DNA of 54,339 bases, filler included, from Bipalium vagum (lineage: Eukaryota), in assembly GCA_037834085.1 (NCBI GenBank). It is 3 parts of 3 records of this genome, joined end to end, with 100 filler letters (N's around TTAATTAATTAA, not from the genome) between each part and the next. Parts side by side here need not be neighbours in the genome. Positions count along the whole stretch, not along the records: positions 17,007 to 34,056 come from JBBMKC010080821.1; 2 more parts are not named here. One strand, given 5' to 3'. Positions within the stretch are counted from its first letter, which is position 1. Each line of letters opens with the position of its first letter. This document shows positions 17,471 to 50,478 of this stretch, one piece after another. Below the pieces are notes generated by a model. It was not told the DNA's origin. It saw only the letters and a program-made list of their open reading frames with translations, and did not search any database. Made by a program: the position numbers and the translations under genes.

Positions 17471-19026
17471 ATGGTTGCACAATTGTTATTATTAATTCAT
17501 TTCGTCTGTCGTGTCTGGGAGTCTCCACAGATATTAATATATACAATTCTGCAGGTCTGGAGTCAAAAAAGCTTCGTCAGTCTTCGTGATGAAGTTTTTC
17601 ATTTTCAAAACACAGCGCTCAGAGAAAATGTGAAATGGACATTAACGTTTTAAGACACTGTTCACTATAACATTTAGAGGGTTAAGAGAACTTTACATCA
17701 GTAATAAATGATTTCATATCTCTTCGTATAAGTCTTAATAACAAAAATAGATGTTTTTGGAACAATTTAATATTTAGAAGAATTTTATTTAAGACCGTTA
17801 GACATTCAACAAAACTATTCCTGTTGAAAGTTATACATGGCCTTGAACAAATTATTGGTGAAAAAATATAAATTTTTAAAAAACATGAAAAATATATTAT
17901 AATAATAATAATAAACGTGTATTATTTAATAAAGATTTATATTATTTTTAATATTATAATATTAATAAATTTAAAAAACAATAAAATAGATATGGTTTTT
18001 AAAATTAAAATTTTCTGTTGTTAGGACTGCCTTGAAGGGTAAATTTATAAAATAATAAAAAAGCTTTCTAAAAAGTCCTAAAAGGAATATTATAATCAAT
18101 TATTTAAATATATACTAATAAAGAGCACTCGTGGCTTCTGATTATAACAAACAAATTAATAAAATATTTAGATTTATAGATTATAAACCGATAGATGCTA
18201 ATATTTATAACAATTTGTTAATTAATAAAAATTTATAATATTAAAAGTTTTATTTCATTTTAAGTCAATTTTTGAAGGATAATAATCGATATAAAAGTGA
18301 AAATTTTAATCCACATTTTTTCATTATGCCTATAAAATTATTTTTATTTAAAATTCCCGTAAAAAAAATTTCCACTAAATTTTTATTAAATAAAGTGAAT
18401 AAATTAAGTCATTTCTAATTATATTTCGTTTATTAAATAATAAATAAATAAAAATTGAATGAGTTCGAAATTTAAAATTAATTTTTCACGATATTTGAAA
18501 AATATTAAAAAAATATTTTATGAAAATTCTTTTTTTCTATCGTAAGTAGAACCACGGAACATTTTTGGTAAATTCAATAATTTTAGTTGGTAAATTCAAT
18601 AAAAATCATTTTTCAGAACAAAAGATAAGATTTCGAATTTTTATAGAGATACCAGTTTGGTTTTATCACAAGACCCCAATCTCACAATAGTCATATCGTT
18701 CCTATTAATATTTGCATTCTTTTGTTGTTATGTTAATAATATGATTTTTTATTACAATAAATAAACAAATATTTAAACAAATTTATTCCAAAGGAGTCCA
18801 AATATTTAGAAATTTGGCATTTGATGTGAAAACCAAATTTACATTCAAAACCTGTTACAATAATTCATTGAACATTGAATAATATATATTATTTAAGAAA
18901 GGATGTACAGTTCCCATGTAAGCAAACAAATGATTTGTTACCTGAAGACTATTGAAATATATGTTTCACGAAACTTCCATGAATAAATAATATTAAATAT
19001 TTAACCATTTTCACTTGTTGGAAAAA

Positions 19027-19945
19027 ATGTTTTTGGTTTTTCTCACTTTATTAATCCAAGTCAAATCGAATACGGTCTACAAGGTTTGGAGCTCCTGTGT
19101 TTTTCAAAGCTTTCAGACCTATGAAGTACAGTCCCAAATCCAATGTGCTCTTAAATGTGACCTGACCAATTGTAAGGCTCTGCAATATTATGTGAGAACA
19201 TCGTCCTGCCTTTTGTATGCTTATGATGAAATTTGCCAGTCCAACACGTCTTGTAGCAATGTCAAAATATTTATCAATGACAGATTCAATGGCTTGGTAA
19301 GAGAGAGTAGTTGTTGTTTTCATACCATTTTTATACTGTTTATAGTTTCATTCAGATAAAACAAATCCGAGATATCAAATTTTGAAGAACATCAATTTTC
19401 ATTTCGCTAGAGGAGGTCCGTCGTTATATAACATCAACAATCATACTCAAGGAATGGCAATATTAACCAGTAAGAATGACATGGCTTTTGTGGCATTAGG
19501 ATCATTTGAGAAAAGCAAACTGGTATCCCTACCTAAATTCGAAATCGTTTCTTTTATTTTAACGAGGCATTCTGAAAGTAAACTCTACATTCTTCAAATC
19601 AATAATATCATCGAGTTCTTAACTGAAGGACTATGCAAAACTTATACTAAATGTTTTCACTCAATTGACAAATACAAGGAATACATTGGAGTAAACCACC
19701 AAGTTTTCGGCATTGATTCAATTTCCGAATTTGATATTGATGATTTGGTAACTGAGATAACAAAACACAATTGGCATTTTATTTTAGCAGGAACCTTTTG
19801 GGGTGGACATCCCACACGACTTATTCAACAATTTCTCAACCTGTACGGCCTTTGTGCTTTAAAAATATCGGATAAAACAGATTATTATGTCCGAGGAAAT
19901 ATTTGTAAAAATGTTACAAAAATCAAATCAACCAAATGCCGTTAG
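19027..19945 (+). CDS. Secreted PAN/Apple-domain protein, copy 1 (about 289 aa, 2 exons)
   Basis: Exons 19027-19296 and 19346-19945; 49-nt phase-0 intron GTAAGA...TATAG joins both ORFs in frame. Signal peptide MFLVFLTLLIQVKS; PAN motif SQIQCALKCDLTNCKALQY....SSCLLY. Confidence 0.85.
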
Positions 19946-23651: not shown

Positions 23652-26201
23652 ATGAGTTTAAAATTGTGAGTTATTCTTAATTCAAAATATTTTACTTTAC
23701 ATATTTAGATTGATTTGTGGGGATATTAAAGGAAAATTTGATGATCTTTATAAAAAGATTGATGTGATTGAAAAAAAGAGTGGCAAATTTGATGTAAAAT
23801 AATATGTGTTCAGATATATATTATTTTGTTCTAGACTTTGTTTTGCATAGGAGATGCATTTGGTGACAGCTACAGCTCAATTATCAGCTATATAGATGGA
23901 AAAAGCTACTGTAAATATTTATTTGTGTCCATATTTTTAAAATAAGATTATTAGCTCCTATAGAAACCTATATAATTTCACAATTACCAAGTGAACTTAA
24001 TTCAATAATTGACGTTAACGGTTCAGAAATATGTAAAAATATAACATATCTCGGCAAAAAAGGTGTCATTAAATTTCAGAACAAGTTAAAAATCGGATTT
24101 CTGAATGGTACCGAAGTAACTAATGAGGAAGTTAAAAATTTATCTCACCAATTAATGTGTACCAATATTGGTTACACTGGTATTGATATTTTATTCACTC
24201 TTTTATGGCCATCGGGCATTGAAAAACTCGGCAAAGAACTTCCCAGCGGAGAGAACTCTGTTAAATGGGGAAATGAATTAATTTCTGCTTTAGCAGTTTT
24301 AGTGAAACCGCGGTATCATTTTACAGCGGGACGTGACTTATATTATGAACGACAACCATACAAGTAAATTTATTTTGCTTTTCGAATTTCATTGCCTTAT
24401 TGCATTGTGAATCGTTATTAGAATGTATTCAATTTTTGTGTGGAAATTTGTAATTCTTTTATATCAAGAATTACTCTAATTGTTTAAAAATATTACAATG
24501 GGTTATTTAGGAATGGTAATTCTCTTTCAAAACCGAAACATGCAACTCGCTTCATTGGTCTCTCGTCTTATAAAAACAAAGCAAATGACAAGGTTACATT
24601 ATTTTTGTAGATAAAGAGATCGTCATTGTACAAATCATTGACGCAATTTATAAAATAAAATTTTAAAAATTATGAAGTTAATTATTTATTATTTCTTTTC
24701 TAATTGTTTAAATTAATTAATTTTGAATTAACTAATTTCATTTTCTGTTATCGCGGAATTGAGTTATGTTTTTGATTTTCGTTATTAACTGTACCATTTA
24801 TTCATATGATTAAAAAGTTGTTAATTAAATTTTTTGGTCACAATTTGATAACATTCAACAATAAACTAATCTTTTGGTTTTAGTATTTATATGCATTGCA
24901 ATTGCAACCGATGGAATTAATGGTGCCCGAGGATCTATTGAAAATACCAGCTGATTGTACCGAAAATCCATTTTTAGAAATCAAAACAGATCTTATATTG
25001 GTAAAATTATTAAACAATAATTTTGTAATACAGTTTTAAAAACAGTCGTCGACGAGTCAGCAATTCTTTTACGATCCATCTCTATTGAAAAGAAAAGCTG
25101 AGTCTGAAGGAGAACATAGCGAGAAAAAAAAGCAGCGTTTGTAAAATTGACATTGGATGATAATTGTGACGGTGGAAATTTTCAGGGACAAACTCAACGG
25201 ACGGCTGTTGGTTTTGCTTGGGCAATCCTCAGGTGGAAAAGCATTTAATAGTTCATGTTGGAAATGAAGTCTACGTTGCCATGCCACGGGGTGCTCTCAG
25301 CGATGAGCATTTGATGATTTTGACCGTTGGCCATTTCCAATCTTTCGTAACCGTCCCAGCGGAAGTGAGAAAAGAAGTCAGGAGAGCTATGAAGACAATT
25401 GTCAAATACTTCTCCACAAAAGACAAGGACGTCGTTTTTTTCGAGAGGAACTTCAAAACAAATCACTTTCAAATGCAGGTCGGTTACTCTCAGTATTTCT
25501 TTTCGTCTTTGTTTAAAGTATATCGCATTGTTTAGGTCGTGCCGGTTGACAGGGACAAGCTGGAAACCTGTAGAGTATTGTTCACGGAAATGGGGTCCAG
25601 TCCAAGTGGGCCTGGAGAAAATTTCAGAGAAATTCCAAGTCGTGCAAAGCTTGTCGAGGTACCTTTTATCTGTCACCGATAATAGGAACCGTGTGACATT
25701 CGTTTAACCTTCTCATTCAATCGTTATTGCTTCAGATCGTAAATCCAAACGTACCATACTTTTATGTAGAATTTTCGGACGAGAGCAAATTCTTCGGATC
25801 AATTCCTCGCGACAGATTATCGTCATTCGATTTGCAATTCGGAAGGTACGTTGTATTATCAGTTTTCATTGGTCAAATTAAATAATCAATAATATTAATT
25901 TATTTAATAATACTTATAACAGGAAATATGGAACATAAAATCACATTCTTAAATCGATATCGAATTTATTTTAATGGAATTTGAAAATCTTATATTATTT
26001 ATTATAATTATTGATTATAATTTTTATTGATTGCCATAGATTTTATTGTTAATTTTTATTATCAGATTAGTCCTAAGTCATTTGAAGGTTCTGAATTGTC
26101 CACACAAAGTTGATTGGAGGAAATGTATTGAGGATAAGAGCATAGAAAGGAAAATGGTTAAAAAAATGCAGAATTCTCTGTCGAAATTTTTTGAAATATA
26201 A
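23652..26201 (+). CDS. CWF19L1: CWF19-like protein 1 (metallophosphoesterase-like N-terminus plus CwfJ C-terminal domains), about 11 exons
   Basis: Spliced protein MSLKLLICGDIKGKFDDLYKK...FCIGD...DILFTLLWP...KPRYHF...YYERQPY...ATRFIGL...CWFCLGNPQVEKHLIV...FFERNFKTNHFQMQVVP...QFGR...VDWRKC...FFEI*; all introns are GT-AG. Confidence 0.95.
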
Positions 26202-27948: not shown

Positions 27949-28264
27949 TAATTAAAATTATTTAGAAATTTTATAATTAATTTGATGTTTTTCTTTGAAA
28001 TTACATAAGTGCATTTTTTGAACTTATTAATAATAGGAACAAGCATGTATCTAAATCGATATACATTTGGCATTCAATAGGAAAAGAGTTTCACATTTTT
28101 AAACCTGTTTTTAATATTTAATTGAATAGTAAGAATTATTTTTAAGGAAATGTTATACAGCTCCTTGTAAACAAACAAACAATAATTGACAGCAATGTAT
28201 TCCATAACAATTTTCTGTTTATAAATAGTAAATAATGTTTCATTGTATTCATTTTGAGAAAAAC

Positions 28265-29186
28265 ATGTTTAGCTTGAGTTTCCTTATTTTAATAATCAAC
28301 GTTAATTCGTATACAATTTACCAAGTTTCAAGGTCCTGTGTATTTAACAGTTTTCGAACTTATGAACTGCAATCCAAAATCCAGTGTGCTCTTAAATGTG
28401 ACATTAACTATTGTAAAGCGCTGCAATATAATGCTCCAACAAAATCCTGTATTTTGTATGCTCATGACGAAATATGCCAGTCCAATACATCCTGTAGCAA
28501 TGTCACAATATTTATCAATCAAAGAGTAAATGAAATGGTAAGACAGAATATCTTTTGTATTCTTATTATTTTTATACTGTTACTAGTTTCATTCAGACAT
28601 AACGAACCCGAGATATCAAATTTTGAAGAACATCAATTTTACTTATGGTTCAGGAAATCCTTCAGTATTTAATATTAACAATTTTTCTAAAGCAGTTCCA
28701 ATATTAACAAATAAAAATGATAATATTTTAGTAGCAATGGGATATTTTAAAAACAGCAAGCTCGTTTCCTTACCGAAATCAGAAATGGTTTCTTATATTT
28801 TAAGCGGTCATCTTAGAAAATTTTTATTTATTCTTCAAATCAATAATATCATCGAGTTCTTGACCGAAGGACTATGCAAAACCTATACTAAATGTTTTCA
28901 CTCAATTGACAAAGACAAGGAATACATTGGAGTAAACCACCAAGTTTTCGGTATTGACTCAATTTCCGAATTTGATATTGATGATTTGGTCACTGAGATA
29001 ACAAAACACAATTGGCATTTTATTTTAGCAGGAACCTTTTGGGGTGGACATCCCACACGACTTATTCAACAATTTCTCAACATGTACGGCATTTGTGCTT
29101 TAAAAATATCGGATAAAACCGATTATTATGTACGAGGAAACATTTGTAAAAATGTTACGAAAATCAAAACAACGAAATGTGTTTAG
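28265..29186 (+). CDS. Secreted PAN/Apple-domain protein, copy 2 (about 290 aa, 2 exons)
   Basis: Exons 28265-28537 and 28587-29186 with the same 49-nt phase-0 intron; signal peptide MFSLSFLILIINVNS; SKIQCALKCDINYCKALQY...SCILY; paralog of 19027-19945. Confidence 0.85.
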
Positions 29187-30259: not shown

Positions 30260-31270
30260 TAACAATTCTTATTTATATAACAATTGTTAAAGTTGTGGTT
30301 CTGCTTTTTGTTGTAGAATCCCGATCCCGACGAACGTTGACAGCTACTTAAAAGCTGATTTCTGGATTCGGGATCGTGAACTCCCCTTGAAGACTGATGG
30401 TCGCCTTTGAATAGTGAATTCACAGCCAAGCTCTCTTTAGAATACAAAAATGACTTGCAAAATGCTTGGGATGCGAAACCATCAGCAAGTACTCGGAATT
30501 TAGAGACTGTACTTCGAGTTTCTCACATCTATTTTGAGGAATAGTTGTTTATATTGTGAAGAAATTTACGCTAAAAAAATTAATTTTTTCGCTCGATCAC
30601 GAAATTTACTTATAACCTTGTATCATATTGGCTAAAAATATAAGTAGTATGTAAATGAGTAGGCAGTATGATATTATGAATATTAAACGATATATCTAAA
30701 CATTAAAAGCTGAACACATCTAACAAGTCCATCGAAAATACTCTTCTTAATACTCTTAAATCCAATTGGTTTTTTGGTTGTTAGAAAGATCTAGGAAGGT
30801 CGAAAAAATATCTAATTTCTAAAACAGATCATTATAAAATATAAATAATATAATGGTAAACTGAAACTGTGCAGATTTGGTATTGATTACTTTGAACTTT
30901 CAATAGGATACGACTTACAAGTTTCTGTTTGTCAGTCATGCTTTAATTAGTAAAAATGTTTATAAAACCCTAGCAATACTTTTATTATTTTAACTTGTAA
31001 GCATTTCATCCAAAAACAACAGCGATAATAATGGAAAAGGTAAATATTTTTCATTATTTATTATTTATTTTTCTCGAGAATTGCAAAATAATATTTTCTG
31101 TTTCAAAATGACCTTTGTACAATCTTGTTCATTGATGATCTGTGCTTTCAATCAGAAACATCAAAGCCAGAAATTTAACACAGATAAAATTGAAACAAGA
31201 ATTTTTGTAAAATAATCTCAAAGTCATTAACAGAGTCATTAACAAGGAGAATATTTGTTAAAGCAGAAGT
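30260..31270 (-). pseudogene. Decayed gene of unknown family, paralogous to 36200-37515
   Basis: LYSKESLAVNSLFKGDHQSSRGVHDPESRNQL aligns with VYPEGSFILNKIVQSEYKLERGV/HDPGLNSQL; upstream frames contain stops. The 5' extent is uncertain. Confidence 0.4.
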
Positions 31271-32941
31271 GAACCTTTTCTAGAAACAATGAGGAGCATA
31301 TTAATTGAGTCACGTTATATATTTTTTTACTTTTGGTTTTAATTAAAGTAAAAGTCGATGAATACAAAAATGTTCTATTAAAAAACTAAATAATTGTAAT
31401 AATAAATCATGATTTTTAAAAAGTTTATTACATATCAGGCCTTTGTGTGCCCTCCATGTCAACCAGCTTTACACATGTCTCTTTTTATTAACATTCACTA
31501 ACATTATTTTATTAACATTCATTCCTAAAAATCCAGTTAGGCCATCTTGTTGTTCTGTTTTCTTCACATTATTTGATTTTATTTTCTTTATGACTGCAGG
31601 TTAAATTTAACTTCTTCTTATGAGCAAAGTTTGAAAATCCTGATCGATGCAGGTAGTTTAAAAGGTGTTGGGATGCACTCTTGAGATCCACGATTTACCA
31701 TATCTTTACAAAAATCAAAAGATGTTCTTGTGTCACCTTTTATGACAAGTTAACTGAGTTTCAGCCAATTTATTTTTTTAAATTTTCCTAAGTCTTCCAC
31801 GTCTAGTCTTTCTTTCAAGACTACATCCTTAACGGTATTCCCGTTATTTTAATATATTTCAGCTGGGCTCTCATAATCCTTTTTTTGGTTTTAAATTTGA
31901 ATTTAGAAATGTGTGGTCTTCATTTTGGACAATTGATCTAAGAAAATTATCAAAATAATGATCATTATAAGGTTACATTTAAAATGATTATATATTATTA
32001 AAAGTATCTTACCTAGTGGTTAAACTAACCGCCTGGTATTTAAATTATTTAAACAAATGTAGTATAATCAAACTTTAATTATCAAACCGCCACTTGTTAT
32101 TATGGCAGCTACATAATTCTTTTGTTATTAATGAAATGGTAAGTGAAAAAATGATTAAAAATCTTTTTTTAATTTTAAAATTTAAACAATTTCATTTTGT
32201 AAAAATACTCGGAACCCGTTTCAAATAAAAAACAAATATAACAGTAACAGAAACATAAAATAAGAAAATCAAACACATTTCACACAACAAATGAAACGTT
32301 TCAAGCTTGAAAATTCAAGGAAAAATGAACTCCAAGACACATCACCATCTTATGAAGAATGATGATGTCTTTCAATAACTTGGTAACAACAGTAACAAAC
32401 AAAGGGGAGATAATTCCCCTGAAAAGAATAAAGATTTCATCAATCAACCAAGTACCATCATCGGTAATTTTTTTTTTAATTTTATAATATTTGAGGAAGG
32501 AAGGATGTGAGCATTTTTTAATGTCGTGCCCTCATTATCTGCAGCAATGATTTTATCTCGTGATTGACAATATTAATTTAAATGAAAAATTAAAAGGAAA
32601 AAAACTAAGAAATTCATGCAAATCCACTCCCCGTGCTCGAAACATAAACATTCCCAGTTAATTAACTAATACATTTTCATACATTAAAAGATTTCCTTTC
32701 ACCATTGAAAACCAAAAATTTTTTTGTGTTTTTGTCTTTTTTTCAAATGGCTTCTTTCTCTACGGAGGAAGAAGAAAAGTTAGAGTCGAGTCTGCCTAAT
32801 GAAACGAAGATTACAAAATACCATTAACAGTACGGCATTGATGGGGCAAAGAGAGTAAAATTTTACATCAAAACAATTACGAGATTTTGGAATATTTTTT
32901 GTTTTTTTTTATTTTTAATATTAATTTTAATTAAGCAAATG

Positions 32942-33048
32942 TTGAAATGTTTCTCCGTCAGGATTTTCTTTCGTTGAGCAAACGAAAGCAGGGCAGTGTA
33001 TTGAGCAACGCTTCGCCCAGGTTTCTGTTACGGGGTGAATATTTTCAA
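32942..33048 (+). ncRNA. Candidate structured RNA element: three-way junction with two GAGCA-loop hairpins
   Basis: Outer stem TTGAAATGTTT-CTCCGT-CAGGATTTT pairs with AGGTTTCTG-ACGGGG-GAATAT-TTCAA; inner stems CTTTCGTT/AACGAAAG and GGGC-AGTGT/ACGCT-GCCC; about 7 G-U pairs on the + strand. Confidence 0.5.
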
Positions 33049-33487
33049 AGTGATTTGGGAGAATATTTTAATCCTTACATCACATTTTTTAATTATAAAA
33101 AAAAACTGAAAGAAAAATGGAAGACGAGTTCGCCTTTGCTGCAGTGTACGAAAGAAAAAGTTCAGAAAAGAAAAATCTCCGTCAATGATTTTTTGTTTTA
33201 AAAAAAATCGGAAAAAATTCCCCTCAAAAATTTTTTTATCAATAAAATCTCATTTAAAACAAGGATTTTTTTCTGAAACAAATCTTTTGTTAGACAATTT
33301 TAATTAAAACTTTTTTTAATTGGATTCTTAAAACAAAATTGTAATGAGAAAGTTTGGGGGATTTTGTGAAAATATTTAATATTTCTTTCATTGTAAAATT
33401 ATTCAAAATTCGGATCAATAGAAAAAGAAATTTATGAAGTGCTGAATATTGATTGAATATAATTTATAATTTTTTCTGTTAATTTTA

Positions 33488-33633
33488 TAGGGCGTTTCAA
33501 CAAAAAACAGAACGTTTAAAATATTTCTGAAAAGTGAAAAAATGATAAATAAAAAGAAAAAAAATTTTCTGTTGGATATTTTTTAATAATTCAGAATTTT
33601 GAAAAAAAGCTCTGATTTTTTGAAACACCCTCT
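33488..33633. mobile_element. Small Tc1-family MITE
   Basis: AGGGCGTTTCAACAAAAAACAGA ... CTCTGATTTTTTGAAACACCCT inverted termini. Confidence 0.7.
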
Positions 33634-33820
33634 GTTTAATCATTAAGCATGTGCTGTAGAAATAACGTTCTTTTGTTTCTAGTAATAGTTTTTGTACAAA
33701 ATTTTATTAAAATAGTTAAAGAAATCATTAAAAGAACGATTTATTAAAAAATTTAAGCAACATGCTCAAAATGCTTCCCTACATGTTCAATATAATCCTG
33801 AATGCTAATAGTAACACTTA

Positions 33821-48868: not shown

Positions 48869-50478
48869 CAAACTTTGACTTCGCCTAACTTTTGTTTCAA
48901 TATTAAAAATTTTTCCTCCTTTTACTTTTTATTTCCATTAATAAAATTTAAATAATGTTTTACTAACTTTATCTCGGCGTGGAGATAAAGTTAGAGTTAA
49001 TGACCTTTTGAATGAAATAGAGTAGAGATTGGTGATCGTAGACCAATTTTTCTTCTATTCACAAAAAGCTGCCCAGAACAAAGAGACAAGAAAAGTTTTT
49101 TTTATTATTTGCGAAGGCAGTTTATAAAAGGCGAAAGTTATTGGTACAGGTTCCAAAGAGAAGATCATTTGTACAGTAATTTCATTTATTTCCAAGTTAT
49201 GATGACGATGTAAACGGATTTAACAATGGAACTCATGGAGTTTGGGAATCACTAAGTGACCTGAAAATGACCTAGAGGAAGTCCCGGGACCCATTGTTGC
49301 TCCTGGTGAGGTTATTCTAGATTTCTTTTAATTTTTTTTAATTCTTACTTTTTTTTCGGCATTCAATGTTGTAGTATTATTCAAAATTTGATATTCAACT
49401 CCATACGAGAAATTATAATTAAAAAAGGCAATGATGGTAAATACCAGAAGCAAATATCCGAGGAATTAGAGATTAATAAAAATTCACTGGTATCTGTTAT
49501 TAATCTTTATAAAAAGGTAAGATTTGTCTACAAAAACTAGGAAACCTAAACATAAAAAATTAACAAGAGAAGCATGCAAATTTATACAGGTTTTTATTTT
49601 ATTGAAGAAAACTGTAGCGTAACTTTAAAAAAAGAGAATCAAAGACAAATTCTGAATTAATGCGACAATTACAACCATTAACAAATCTATCAAAGATATG
49701 CACTATTCATTTTAGAGAGTGGTTTTAGTACCAGAGACTCGGAATACAATTCATTTAATTAAAAAACGCGCACTGCATTGTACACAATACATCATAGAAG
49801 ACGAAAATGCATTTATTTTCGAGGATGAATTAGGTATAAGTTGTTCGACTTGTGTTATGTATGGAAGAAGAATAACAAGTACAACTCTTTGTAAAACATT
49901 AAGAGCGATCCTGTCGAAACACTTGTCCATTTGTGAAGCAATTACAAAAAATGATCTAATATCTTTCGCAGTTTGAGAATCTGTCTACAATGTTGTAGGA
50001 TTTTCCGAATTGTTTTAGGAATAATGTTCTAATGATTACATGAAAAAGGTTTTGGGTATATATGAGGTATACATGTCTTTAATTTCATCTTTCAGGTATA
50101 ATGAATCAGGCAGAGTTATAATGGATGATGCGAGTATTCACAAAAATACAAATCACCATCCATTGTTGAATGAAGAATTAGAATTAAGTGTTTTACTAGC
50201 GTATACACCCCAGCTAAATCCCATCGAGGAAGTTTTTCCAAGTGGAAGTGTATTATAAAACAAAGTAATCCAAGAACAATAAACGAATTAAAAGTAAACA
50301 TTGGTAAGACAGCTGATTTTTAAGTCACCATGATTAATATGGATTCTTTTCGCACGTACGATCTTTTGCCGTAAAAGGAATGAGGGAGAACCATTTTAAT
50401 ACGGAATACAGTACTTTTTTGGATTTTATTTTATTTGGTGTCAGAATAAAGTTTAAACAAGCTAAGTCAAAGTTTGAT
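48869..50478 (+). mobile_element. IS630/Tc1-like (DDxE) DNA transposon, decayed, with both TIRs
   Basis: TIRs CAAACTTTGACTTCGC / GCTAAGTCAAAGTTTG; motifs FIFEDELG, VIMDDASIHK, YTPQLNPIEEVF; N-terminal HTH remnants. Confidence 0.85.

Follow-up and report, generated by a model that had tools for sequence, protein, structure and literature searches.

A predicted three-way junction in the Bipalium vagum genome whose repeated loop word may mark a pair of miR-87 target sites on the opposite strand

The window analysed here is a stretch of 54,339 nt from Bipalium vagum (assembly GCA_037834085.1), made of three parts joined with filler. The element under study, at 32942-33048, lies ~1 kb from the end of contig JBBMKC010080821.1 (window position = contig position + 17006), on the same stretch as a CWF19L1 gene and two PAN-like genes. 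Five of the six matches to the CWF19L1 protein are named, all flatworm, the top one at 59% to Cichlidogyrus; at 23790-23930 the introns of this gene appear by eye to be just ~35-45 nt long. It is flanked by paralogous two-exon genes (18997-19945 and 28232-29186, + strand), which have a hydrophobic stretch at the N-terminus and match the PAN domain weakly. Closer to the element, a decayed reading frame with several stops (31590-31950, - strand) continues into a multi-copy repeat. The element itself sits in single-copy DNA:

32256-33450, no strand assigned: single-copy island, bounded by a repeat (31800-32250) on one side and, from ~33470, by high-copy transposon DNA on the other

When three parts of this island were used as DNA queries against the host genome, each matched only itself. 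In one sequencing run, depth over 32256-33015 was mostly ~22-fold (21.8) on one contig, and no allelic or compensatory variants in the element were found among the rows listed for one run. A 10-bp hairpin with a C(UACG)G tetraloop lies 170 nt upstream of the element (32751-32774, + strand) and overlaps a 26-codon ATG frame.

A sequence-only reading of the window had described these ~107 nt as a three-way junction with hairpins of 8 and 9 bp, and folding recovered this structure on the plus strand at -34.9 kcal/mol. The outer stem, put at ~25 bp in that reading, has 20 bp inside 32942-33048 and reaches 22-27 bp when the flanks are included. The predicted parts are as follows:

32944-33045, + strand: predicted three-way junction with an outer stem pairing 32944-32963 with 33023-33045 (20 bp); it forms on the minus strand too
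32968-32988, either strand: hairpin 1, a perfect 8-bp inverted repeat with a 5-nt loop at 32976-32980
32991-33018, + strand: hairpin 2, a 9-bp stem that has a 2-nt bulge and is capped by an 8-nt loop at 33000-33007; weaker on the minus strand

Pair probabilities of both hairpins are 0.84-1.0. The minus strand folds into the same junction topology at -23.6 kcal/mol (z -2.31), with both copies of the repeated word described below in loops. The comparison with shuffled sequences that had been proposed as a check gave a plus-strand z of -3.49, with as stable a fold in 15 of 3000 shuffles; six other loci in the window reach similarly low values (z <= -3.5; 10/30 shuffled tiles, 4288 tiles in total). 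Two of these six are AT microsatellites. We regard the predicted fold of the element as only moderately unusual. Other strong folds in the window lie at 30270-30410 (z ~-4.9) and 48945-49060 (z ~-4.6), the latter a pair of long hairpins.

The word TTGAGCAA occurs at 32974 and again at 33001. The two loops had been described as twins that both read GAGCA. Loop 1 is indeed 5 nt (GAGCA), whereas loop 2 is 8 nt (AUUGAGCA) and holds the word in a different register, so the loops themselves are not alike; what the description retains is an 8-mer repeat that covers both. A repeated 8-mer anywhere is found in 198 of 3000 shuffles and one covering two hairpin loops in 9 of 3000; among 2142 natural tiles, one other locus has such a repeat over two hairpin loops. 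The proposal that the loops form a kissing pair looks weak: the 8-mer self-duplex is worth -2.4 kcal/mol, and both loops stay open in 3779 of 3797 suboptimal structures, in a model that does not cover loop-loop pseudoknots.

The choice of strand had been argued from ~7 G-U pairs, taken as a sign of selection on a plus-strand RNA. We count 6 G-U pairs among 37, close to the shuffle mean of 6.25, and at least 6 occur in 1914 of 3000 shuffles. The strand gap of -11.3 kcal/mol is equalled by 76 among the 150 best-folding shuffles. As both values are ordinary, the strand cannot be inferred from them. The asymmetry does argue against a decayed DNA palindrome, as had been proposed, yet not against chance. 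These results bear on the simplest alternative, namely that a G+C-richer, non-functional unique patch happens to fold well and to repeat an 8-mer, and was picked up by a very large scan. We consider this rather unlikely. It agrees with the ordinary G-U content and strand gap and with the six other loci of comparable z; combining a fold p of ~0.005 with a twin-loop p of ~0.003 over ~1000 tiles, we estimate that such an element arises by chance in ~1-2% of windows of this size.

Searches for relatives are also in keeping with chance, as paralogs and relatives were absent from every one. In the host genome, the twin pattern gave 15 matches against 6 for the control, the hairpin-1 pattern 32 against 15 (longest other stem 7 bp among 30 examined), and the stem pattern 7, with six two-mismatch matches that are unrelated. 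A one-sequence covariance model, run on pattern-matched loci only, found nothing credible (best E 0.14). Pattern matches elsewhere (24 viral, 10 metagenome, 1 prokaryote) are not homologous, and blastn against phages gave short AT-rich matches only, off the element. The homolog search suggested earlier thus came back empty for the host genome and for the viral, metagenome and prokaryote collections. A literature search on the loop 8-mer found such an element in no title among the matches listed.

The interval had been called gene-free, which goes further than the sequence allows: an open frame of 88 codons (32935-33201) spans the element, with neither a paralog nor a credible family or atlas match. 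Read as a coding exon, the locus would use a splice acceptor at 32936, where a pyrimidine tract ends in AG, to open the frame, and the twin words would encode LSK and LSN. The missing paralog, a Pfam match under the cut-off, a best atlas score of 0.75 (recognition 1146) and the absence of a joinable upstream frame make this scarcely credible, as does the presence of 35 frames no shorter among the 7786 stop-free ones in the window. Recoding was considered because both words place an in-frame TGA in one plus-strand frame, and was rejected as that frame has an earlier TAA stop.

Short words of the element are reused nearby:

33129-33184, + strand: four 6-9-nt element words in reversed order, pairable with the element in longer folds

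This reuse scores 65 bits, inside the range of 49-144 given by the best hits of 54 control segments; both top word-reuse hits are local, as in just one of the 54 controls. Element words also occur at 32244-32320 (- strand) in colinear order, and the set at 33129-33184 is mirrored about 33068-33073. In another reading the locus is an enhancer or promoter island at the DNA level, its twin bZIP-type sites being a C/EBP-like word and CRE half-sites, and the fold is incidental. This would make sense of a unique island richer in G+C and CpG (at least 6 CpG in 13 of 502 tiles), of four words reused in altered order, of two TGACG words and of an octamer at 32616. We hold it to be very unlikely. The reuse score is that of the controls, and both the stems and the extended miR-87 pairing described below would go unexplained. 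Moreover, planarian binding motifs are without experimental verification according to the part of PMC10558129 consulted.

No recognised RNA family was found, in agreement with the sequence-only reading. At gathering score Rfam matched nothing anywhere in the window, and none of 13 matches at E <= 10 in 32300-33500 falls on the element; ARAGORN found no tRNA gene. The other classes were checked by their consensus motifs. For a box C/D snoRNA, the sole C box is at 32359 and Rfam has no match on the element. An Sm-class snRNA or Pol III gene was rejected, as an adjacent Sm site, a B box and a U6-type upstream motif are all absent, and an iron-responsive element because CAGTGT at 32994 is paired in a stem and not in an apical loop. 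The hammerhead core is absent from the element, and a sigma-70 promoter scan is irrelevant for this host.

The CAB-box motif UGAG could suggest a likeness of the element to H/ACA scaRNAs and telomerase RNA. It lies entirely in a loop at hairpin 2 only; at hairpin 1 its U is paired. Unlike these RNAs, the element has no H box in a hinge, no pocket geometry and no template, as had been noted before. Going downstream from the stem, one meets ANANNA first at 33060, within the following hairpin, and an ACA at 33082-84 overlaps a short stem, on which grounds an H/ACA RNA was rejected. With TTAGGG as the telomeric repeat, no 6-nt permutation is present on either strand of 32250-33500. Metazoan telomerase RNAs retain a template-pseudoknot and an H/ACA domain (PMC8480181, in part); neither is seen here.

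Host snRNA genes were used for comparison. Upstream of the U6 genes lies a shared octamer-like motif whose end is ~27 nt from the start, whereas the DNA upstream of the U1 genes is AT-rich without a clear motif, so that a plus-strand Pol II small RNA is still conceivable. U1 genes form divergent pairs of different sequence types (L131/L133, L134), and in L021 a U2 gene is flanked on each side by a U6 piece, all on a single 1-kb contig. Six loci (L023, L024, L025, L028, L029, L030) hold dispersed, 5'-truncated, diverged U2 copies; five of the six share a downstream tail that is an inverted part of U2, L028 being without it, and L023 has two copies in opposite orientation. This family looks like a U2-derived repeat. 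Another four loci (L019, L020, L022, L026) carry a different, more canonical U2 type in a G+C-rich context, which suggests that a second organism was co-assembled.

The original proposal was a new ncRNA or cis-element. Its non-random fold, repeated loop word and lack of a known family stand, while the case for plus-strand selection does not. A plus-strand small RNA or 5' leader starting at ~32937, with two loops that would offer a protein a bivalent binding site or imitate the seed of miR-87, would account directly for the stems; the better fold of the plus strand and its 6 G-U pairs count in its favour. A T-tract just upstream resembles those before a host U1 gene (L134) and within the U2-U6 locus (L021), and a 3'-box-like word follows at 33107. 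Constitutive starts in Schmidtea are preceded by T-stretches (PMC10558129, in part). However, the loops are unlike in size and register, the DNA is >90% AT over just ~50 nt upstream, and the 3'-box word scores 8.2, against a background of 2.3 hits per kb at scores of at least 6.6. An Rfam match, an H box, a template, a C/D pair, an adjacent Sm site and a B box are all missing, as is a host U6-type motif nearby, and the miR-87 matches would be left to chance. In our view such an RNA is unlikely. Matches to the Schmidtea Inr consensus (PMC10558129, in part) number 11 in the element's surroundings (L130), the nearest, with two mismatches on the minus strand, abutting the element; they are not diagnostic.

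What the sequence-only reading overlooked is that the repeated word is the exact reverse complement of a host miR-87 8mer site, a match indicative of the minus strand and of a ligand guided by RNA. On that strand both copies are exact canonical 8mer target sites (complementary to seed nt 2-8, plus A), and the miR-87 family sequence in the available part of PMC8016320 agrees with the word as the miR-87 5' end. Identity between the copies ends at these 8 nt, and their flanks differ. The candidate sites and their extensions, as predicted from sequence, are:

33001-33008, - strand: predicted miR-87 8mer site A, matching seed nt 2-8 plus A
33010-33014, - strand: complement of miR-87b nt 10-14 in register, with nt 9 mismatched
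32974-32981, - strand: predicted miR-87 8mer site B, pairing with nt 2-9
32995-33000, - strand: 6 nt complementary to nt 16-21 at the 3' end of miR-87a, located 12 nt ahead of the site B seed pairing and abutting site A

The host has mir-87 genes. Four of 17 pattern matches (L115, L119, L121, L126) fold as precursors, in two sequence types, and three of these four hairpins match Rfam RF00726 at E 4e-7 to 5e-4, under the gathering score. The sites were compared with mature sequences cut from these loci, which we take to be miR-87a and miR-87b. The element is not itself a mir-87 precursor. It shares with RF00726 the miR-87 nt 2-8, present twice on the plus strand, but the seed lies in loops and not on the 3' arm of a long hairpin, a complementary 5p arm is missing, and RF00726 has no match here.

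How far the pairing extends beyond the seed differs between the sites. At site A, 5 of 6 positions of miR-87b nt 9-14 are matched, an extent reached by none of 68 background sites and by 1.1% of the 3704 GC-matched flanks; the 6-nt 3' block of site B is equalled by 5 of 68 background sites and 5.7% of flanks. There are 34 matches to the extended site-A pattern in 440 Mb, and among the 30 of these examined a second 8mer within 100 nt was found at this locus only. Opening the sites would cost 2.1 and 2.3-2.8 kcal/mol, close to the median for 57 other sites, which is 2.6. Several points count against miR-87. The duplex energies have best-of-two p values of 0.05 and 0.22 and are equalled by 4 and 9 of 68 background sites, a modest advantage over controls. 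Pairing at nt 10-14 also falls outside the canonical supplementary register of nt 13-16. In addition, the extension, tail and duplication tests were devised after the sequence had been inspected and are to be discounted accordingly.

The 8mer identity itself counts for miR-87. With 37 conserved miRNA families in Schmidtea (PMC3840308, in part) and two strands, we calculate ~0.1% for a given 8-mer to be some family's 8mer site. In a blind control judged by eye, none of 23 other close repeats of exactly 8 nt was the 8mer site of any of 29 families (PMC8016320, Table 1). The control has an exception outside that table. One repeat equals the miR-33 site, so such coincidences do happen, which counts against the miR-87 reading; the miR-33 family was lost in flatworms (PMC3840308, in part). 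Another word, at 32951-32959 and 33177-33184 (+ strand), complements miR-184 at an offset, without nt 2, and is probably a chance match. Its pairing would involve nt 3-10/11 of miR-184.

The seed starts of sites A and B are 27 nt apart. Neighbouring miRNA sites act cooperatively at spacings of 15-100 nt (PMC9650897, in part), so the observed spacing counts for a cooperative pair. As in the neighbourhood co-targeting described there, the locus has two canonical 8mer sites for one conserved miRNA family, 27 nt apart and upstream of polyadenylation-like signals; it differs in that the predicted sites lie in hairpins of one junction, which is not required of ordinary sites.

The sequence beyond the sites resembles a minus-strand RNA 3' end:

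32926-32931, - strand: ATTAAA, possible polyadenylation signal, 9 nt before the A-rich tract
32908-32913, - strand: AATAAA, the first on the minus strand for ~790 nt
32893-32917, - strand: A-rich tract, 19 of 22 A; a T-stretch/polypyrimidine tract on the plus strand
32890-32898, - strand: 9-nt direct repeat, candidate 3' target-site duplication
33061-33069, - strand: 9-nt direct repeat, candidate 5' target-site duplication in a TT/AAAA context

The same-strand hexamers and A tract count for a minus-strand 3' end. Against this, an AATAAA lies 20-100 nt downstream of 21% of positions, a share that falls to 4.5% with none in the preceding 500 nt, and ATTAAA occurs 11 times on the minus strand of 32200-33800. 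Tracts with 19 of 22 A, a cut-off picked after inspection, number 6 in 313 kb of host DNA (119 sequences), and one of the six, the tract here, has the 9-nt repeat upstream. At looser cut-offs such a repeat is found upstream of 1 of 36 and 6 of 125 tracts, the TT/AAA context being present here only among the 125. The A-rich tract supports either strand, because similar tracts occur near other features: of seven listed, the first stands ahead of a host U1 gene, another falls in the U2-U6 locus and a third is splice-acceptor-like.

These signals could also be the scar of a 5'-truncated retrocopy made by target-primed reverse transcription (TPRT). An A-rich tail, a 9-nt repeat, the TT/AAAA context and a hexamer before the tail are shared with such copies (PMC2912911, in part). 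In contrast to them, the locus has no parent or sibling copy at 80% identity or more, its tract doubles as a plus-strand T-stretch, and the rules applied come from human L1 (PMC2912911, in part). The search for a parent or sibling copy covered the host assembly, which may be incomplete. A third copy of the 9-nt repeat lies in the outer stem (33037-33045), and the word occurs 14 times in the window. The 144 nt bracketed by the repeats coincide with the extended fold, whose z is only ~-1.7 on either strand. AT-rich DNA gives hexamers, tracts and short repeats on both strands, which again favours chance; however, chance would also need to produce an exact 8mer match to miR-87, its extension in register (0 of 68), a rare A tract and the 9-nt duplication.

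Weighing these observations, we tentatively propose as the best reading, at somewhat less than even confidence, that the element holds two paired miR-87 target sites close to the 3' end of an RNA from the minus strand, native or retroposed. The RNA may be native, being the 3' terminus of a gene or lncRNA with its body on the far side of the contig-end transposon, which we think possible if on the doubtful side, or a retroposed 144-nt copy of such an end, bearing the A tract and 9-nt duplication, which seems distinctly improbable. In the proposed mechanism, a polyadenylated minus-strand RNA would be transcribed with the two neighbouring sites. Argonaute loaded with miR-87a or miR-87b would nucleate on a seed match that is mostly exposed in the loop and open 2-3 bp of the stem, and sites A and B could then repress the RNA cooperatively. 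Any role of the stems would come on top of these steps: miRNA sites need no stems, so the perfect 8-bp hairpin 1 is left unexplained by target sites, and the better fold of the plus strand counts against miR-87. Among the titles and abstract openings listed in literature searches, we found no flatworm miR-87 target.

In a bolder reading, the element would be a natural structured decoy, a minus-strand ncRNA whose three-way junction displays in its loops one site tuned to miR-87a and another to miR-87b, so inducing the decay of these miRNAs. Triggers of target-directed miRNA degradation (TDMD) such as C. elegans tts-2, HSUR1 and Cyrano likewise combine a seed match with extra pairing around an unpaired middle (PMC10899785, in part), and tts-2, like the element, has two sites (PMC12324485, in part). 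Solved trigger structures differ in having 9-10 nt of 3' pairing (PMC10899785, in part), against a longest block of 6 nt here; for tts-2, seed pairing suffices for decay (PMC12324485, in part). In the Drosophila ovary, knock-down of Dora causes miR-87-3p to rise and to become tailed (10.1101/2025.02.20.639214, in part). We regard a decoy as highly improbable, and decay triggering as possible yet less likely than cooperative repression. In this bolder reading, if the retroposition scar is real and the parent absent from the genome, the copied RNA could be foreign.

If chance is the true explanation, the element is an ordinary unique patch of DNA. A decoy, if real, would be a loop-displayed, paralog-matched one for a protostome miRNA that responds to the Drosophila decay pathway, and hence a TDMD trigger in a flatworm for a miRNA family sensitive to Dora in flies. 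More generally, twin-loop motifs should be compared with opposite-strand miRNA seeds before a new ncRNA is proposed. Should the paired-site reading be correct, the locus would provide a directly testable miR-87 target in a flatworm.
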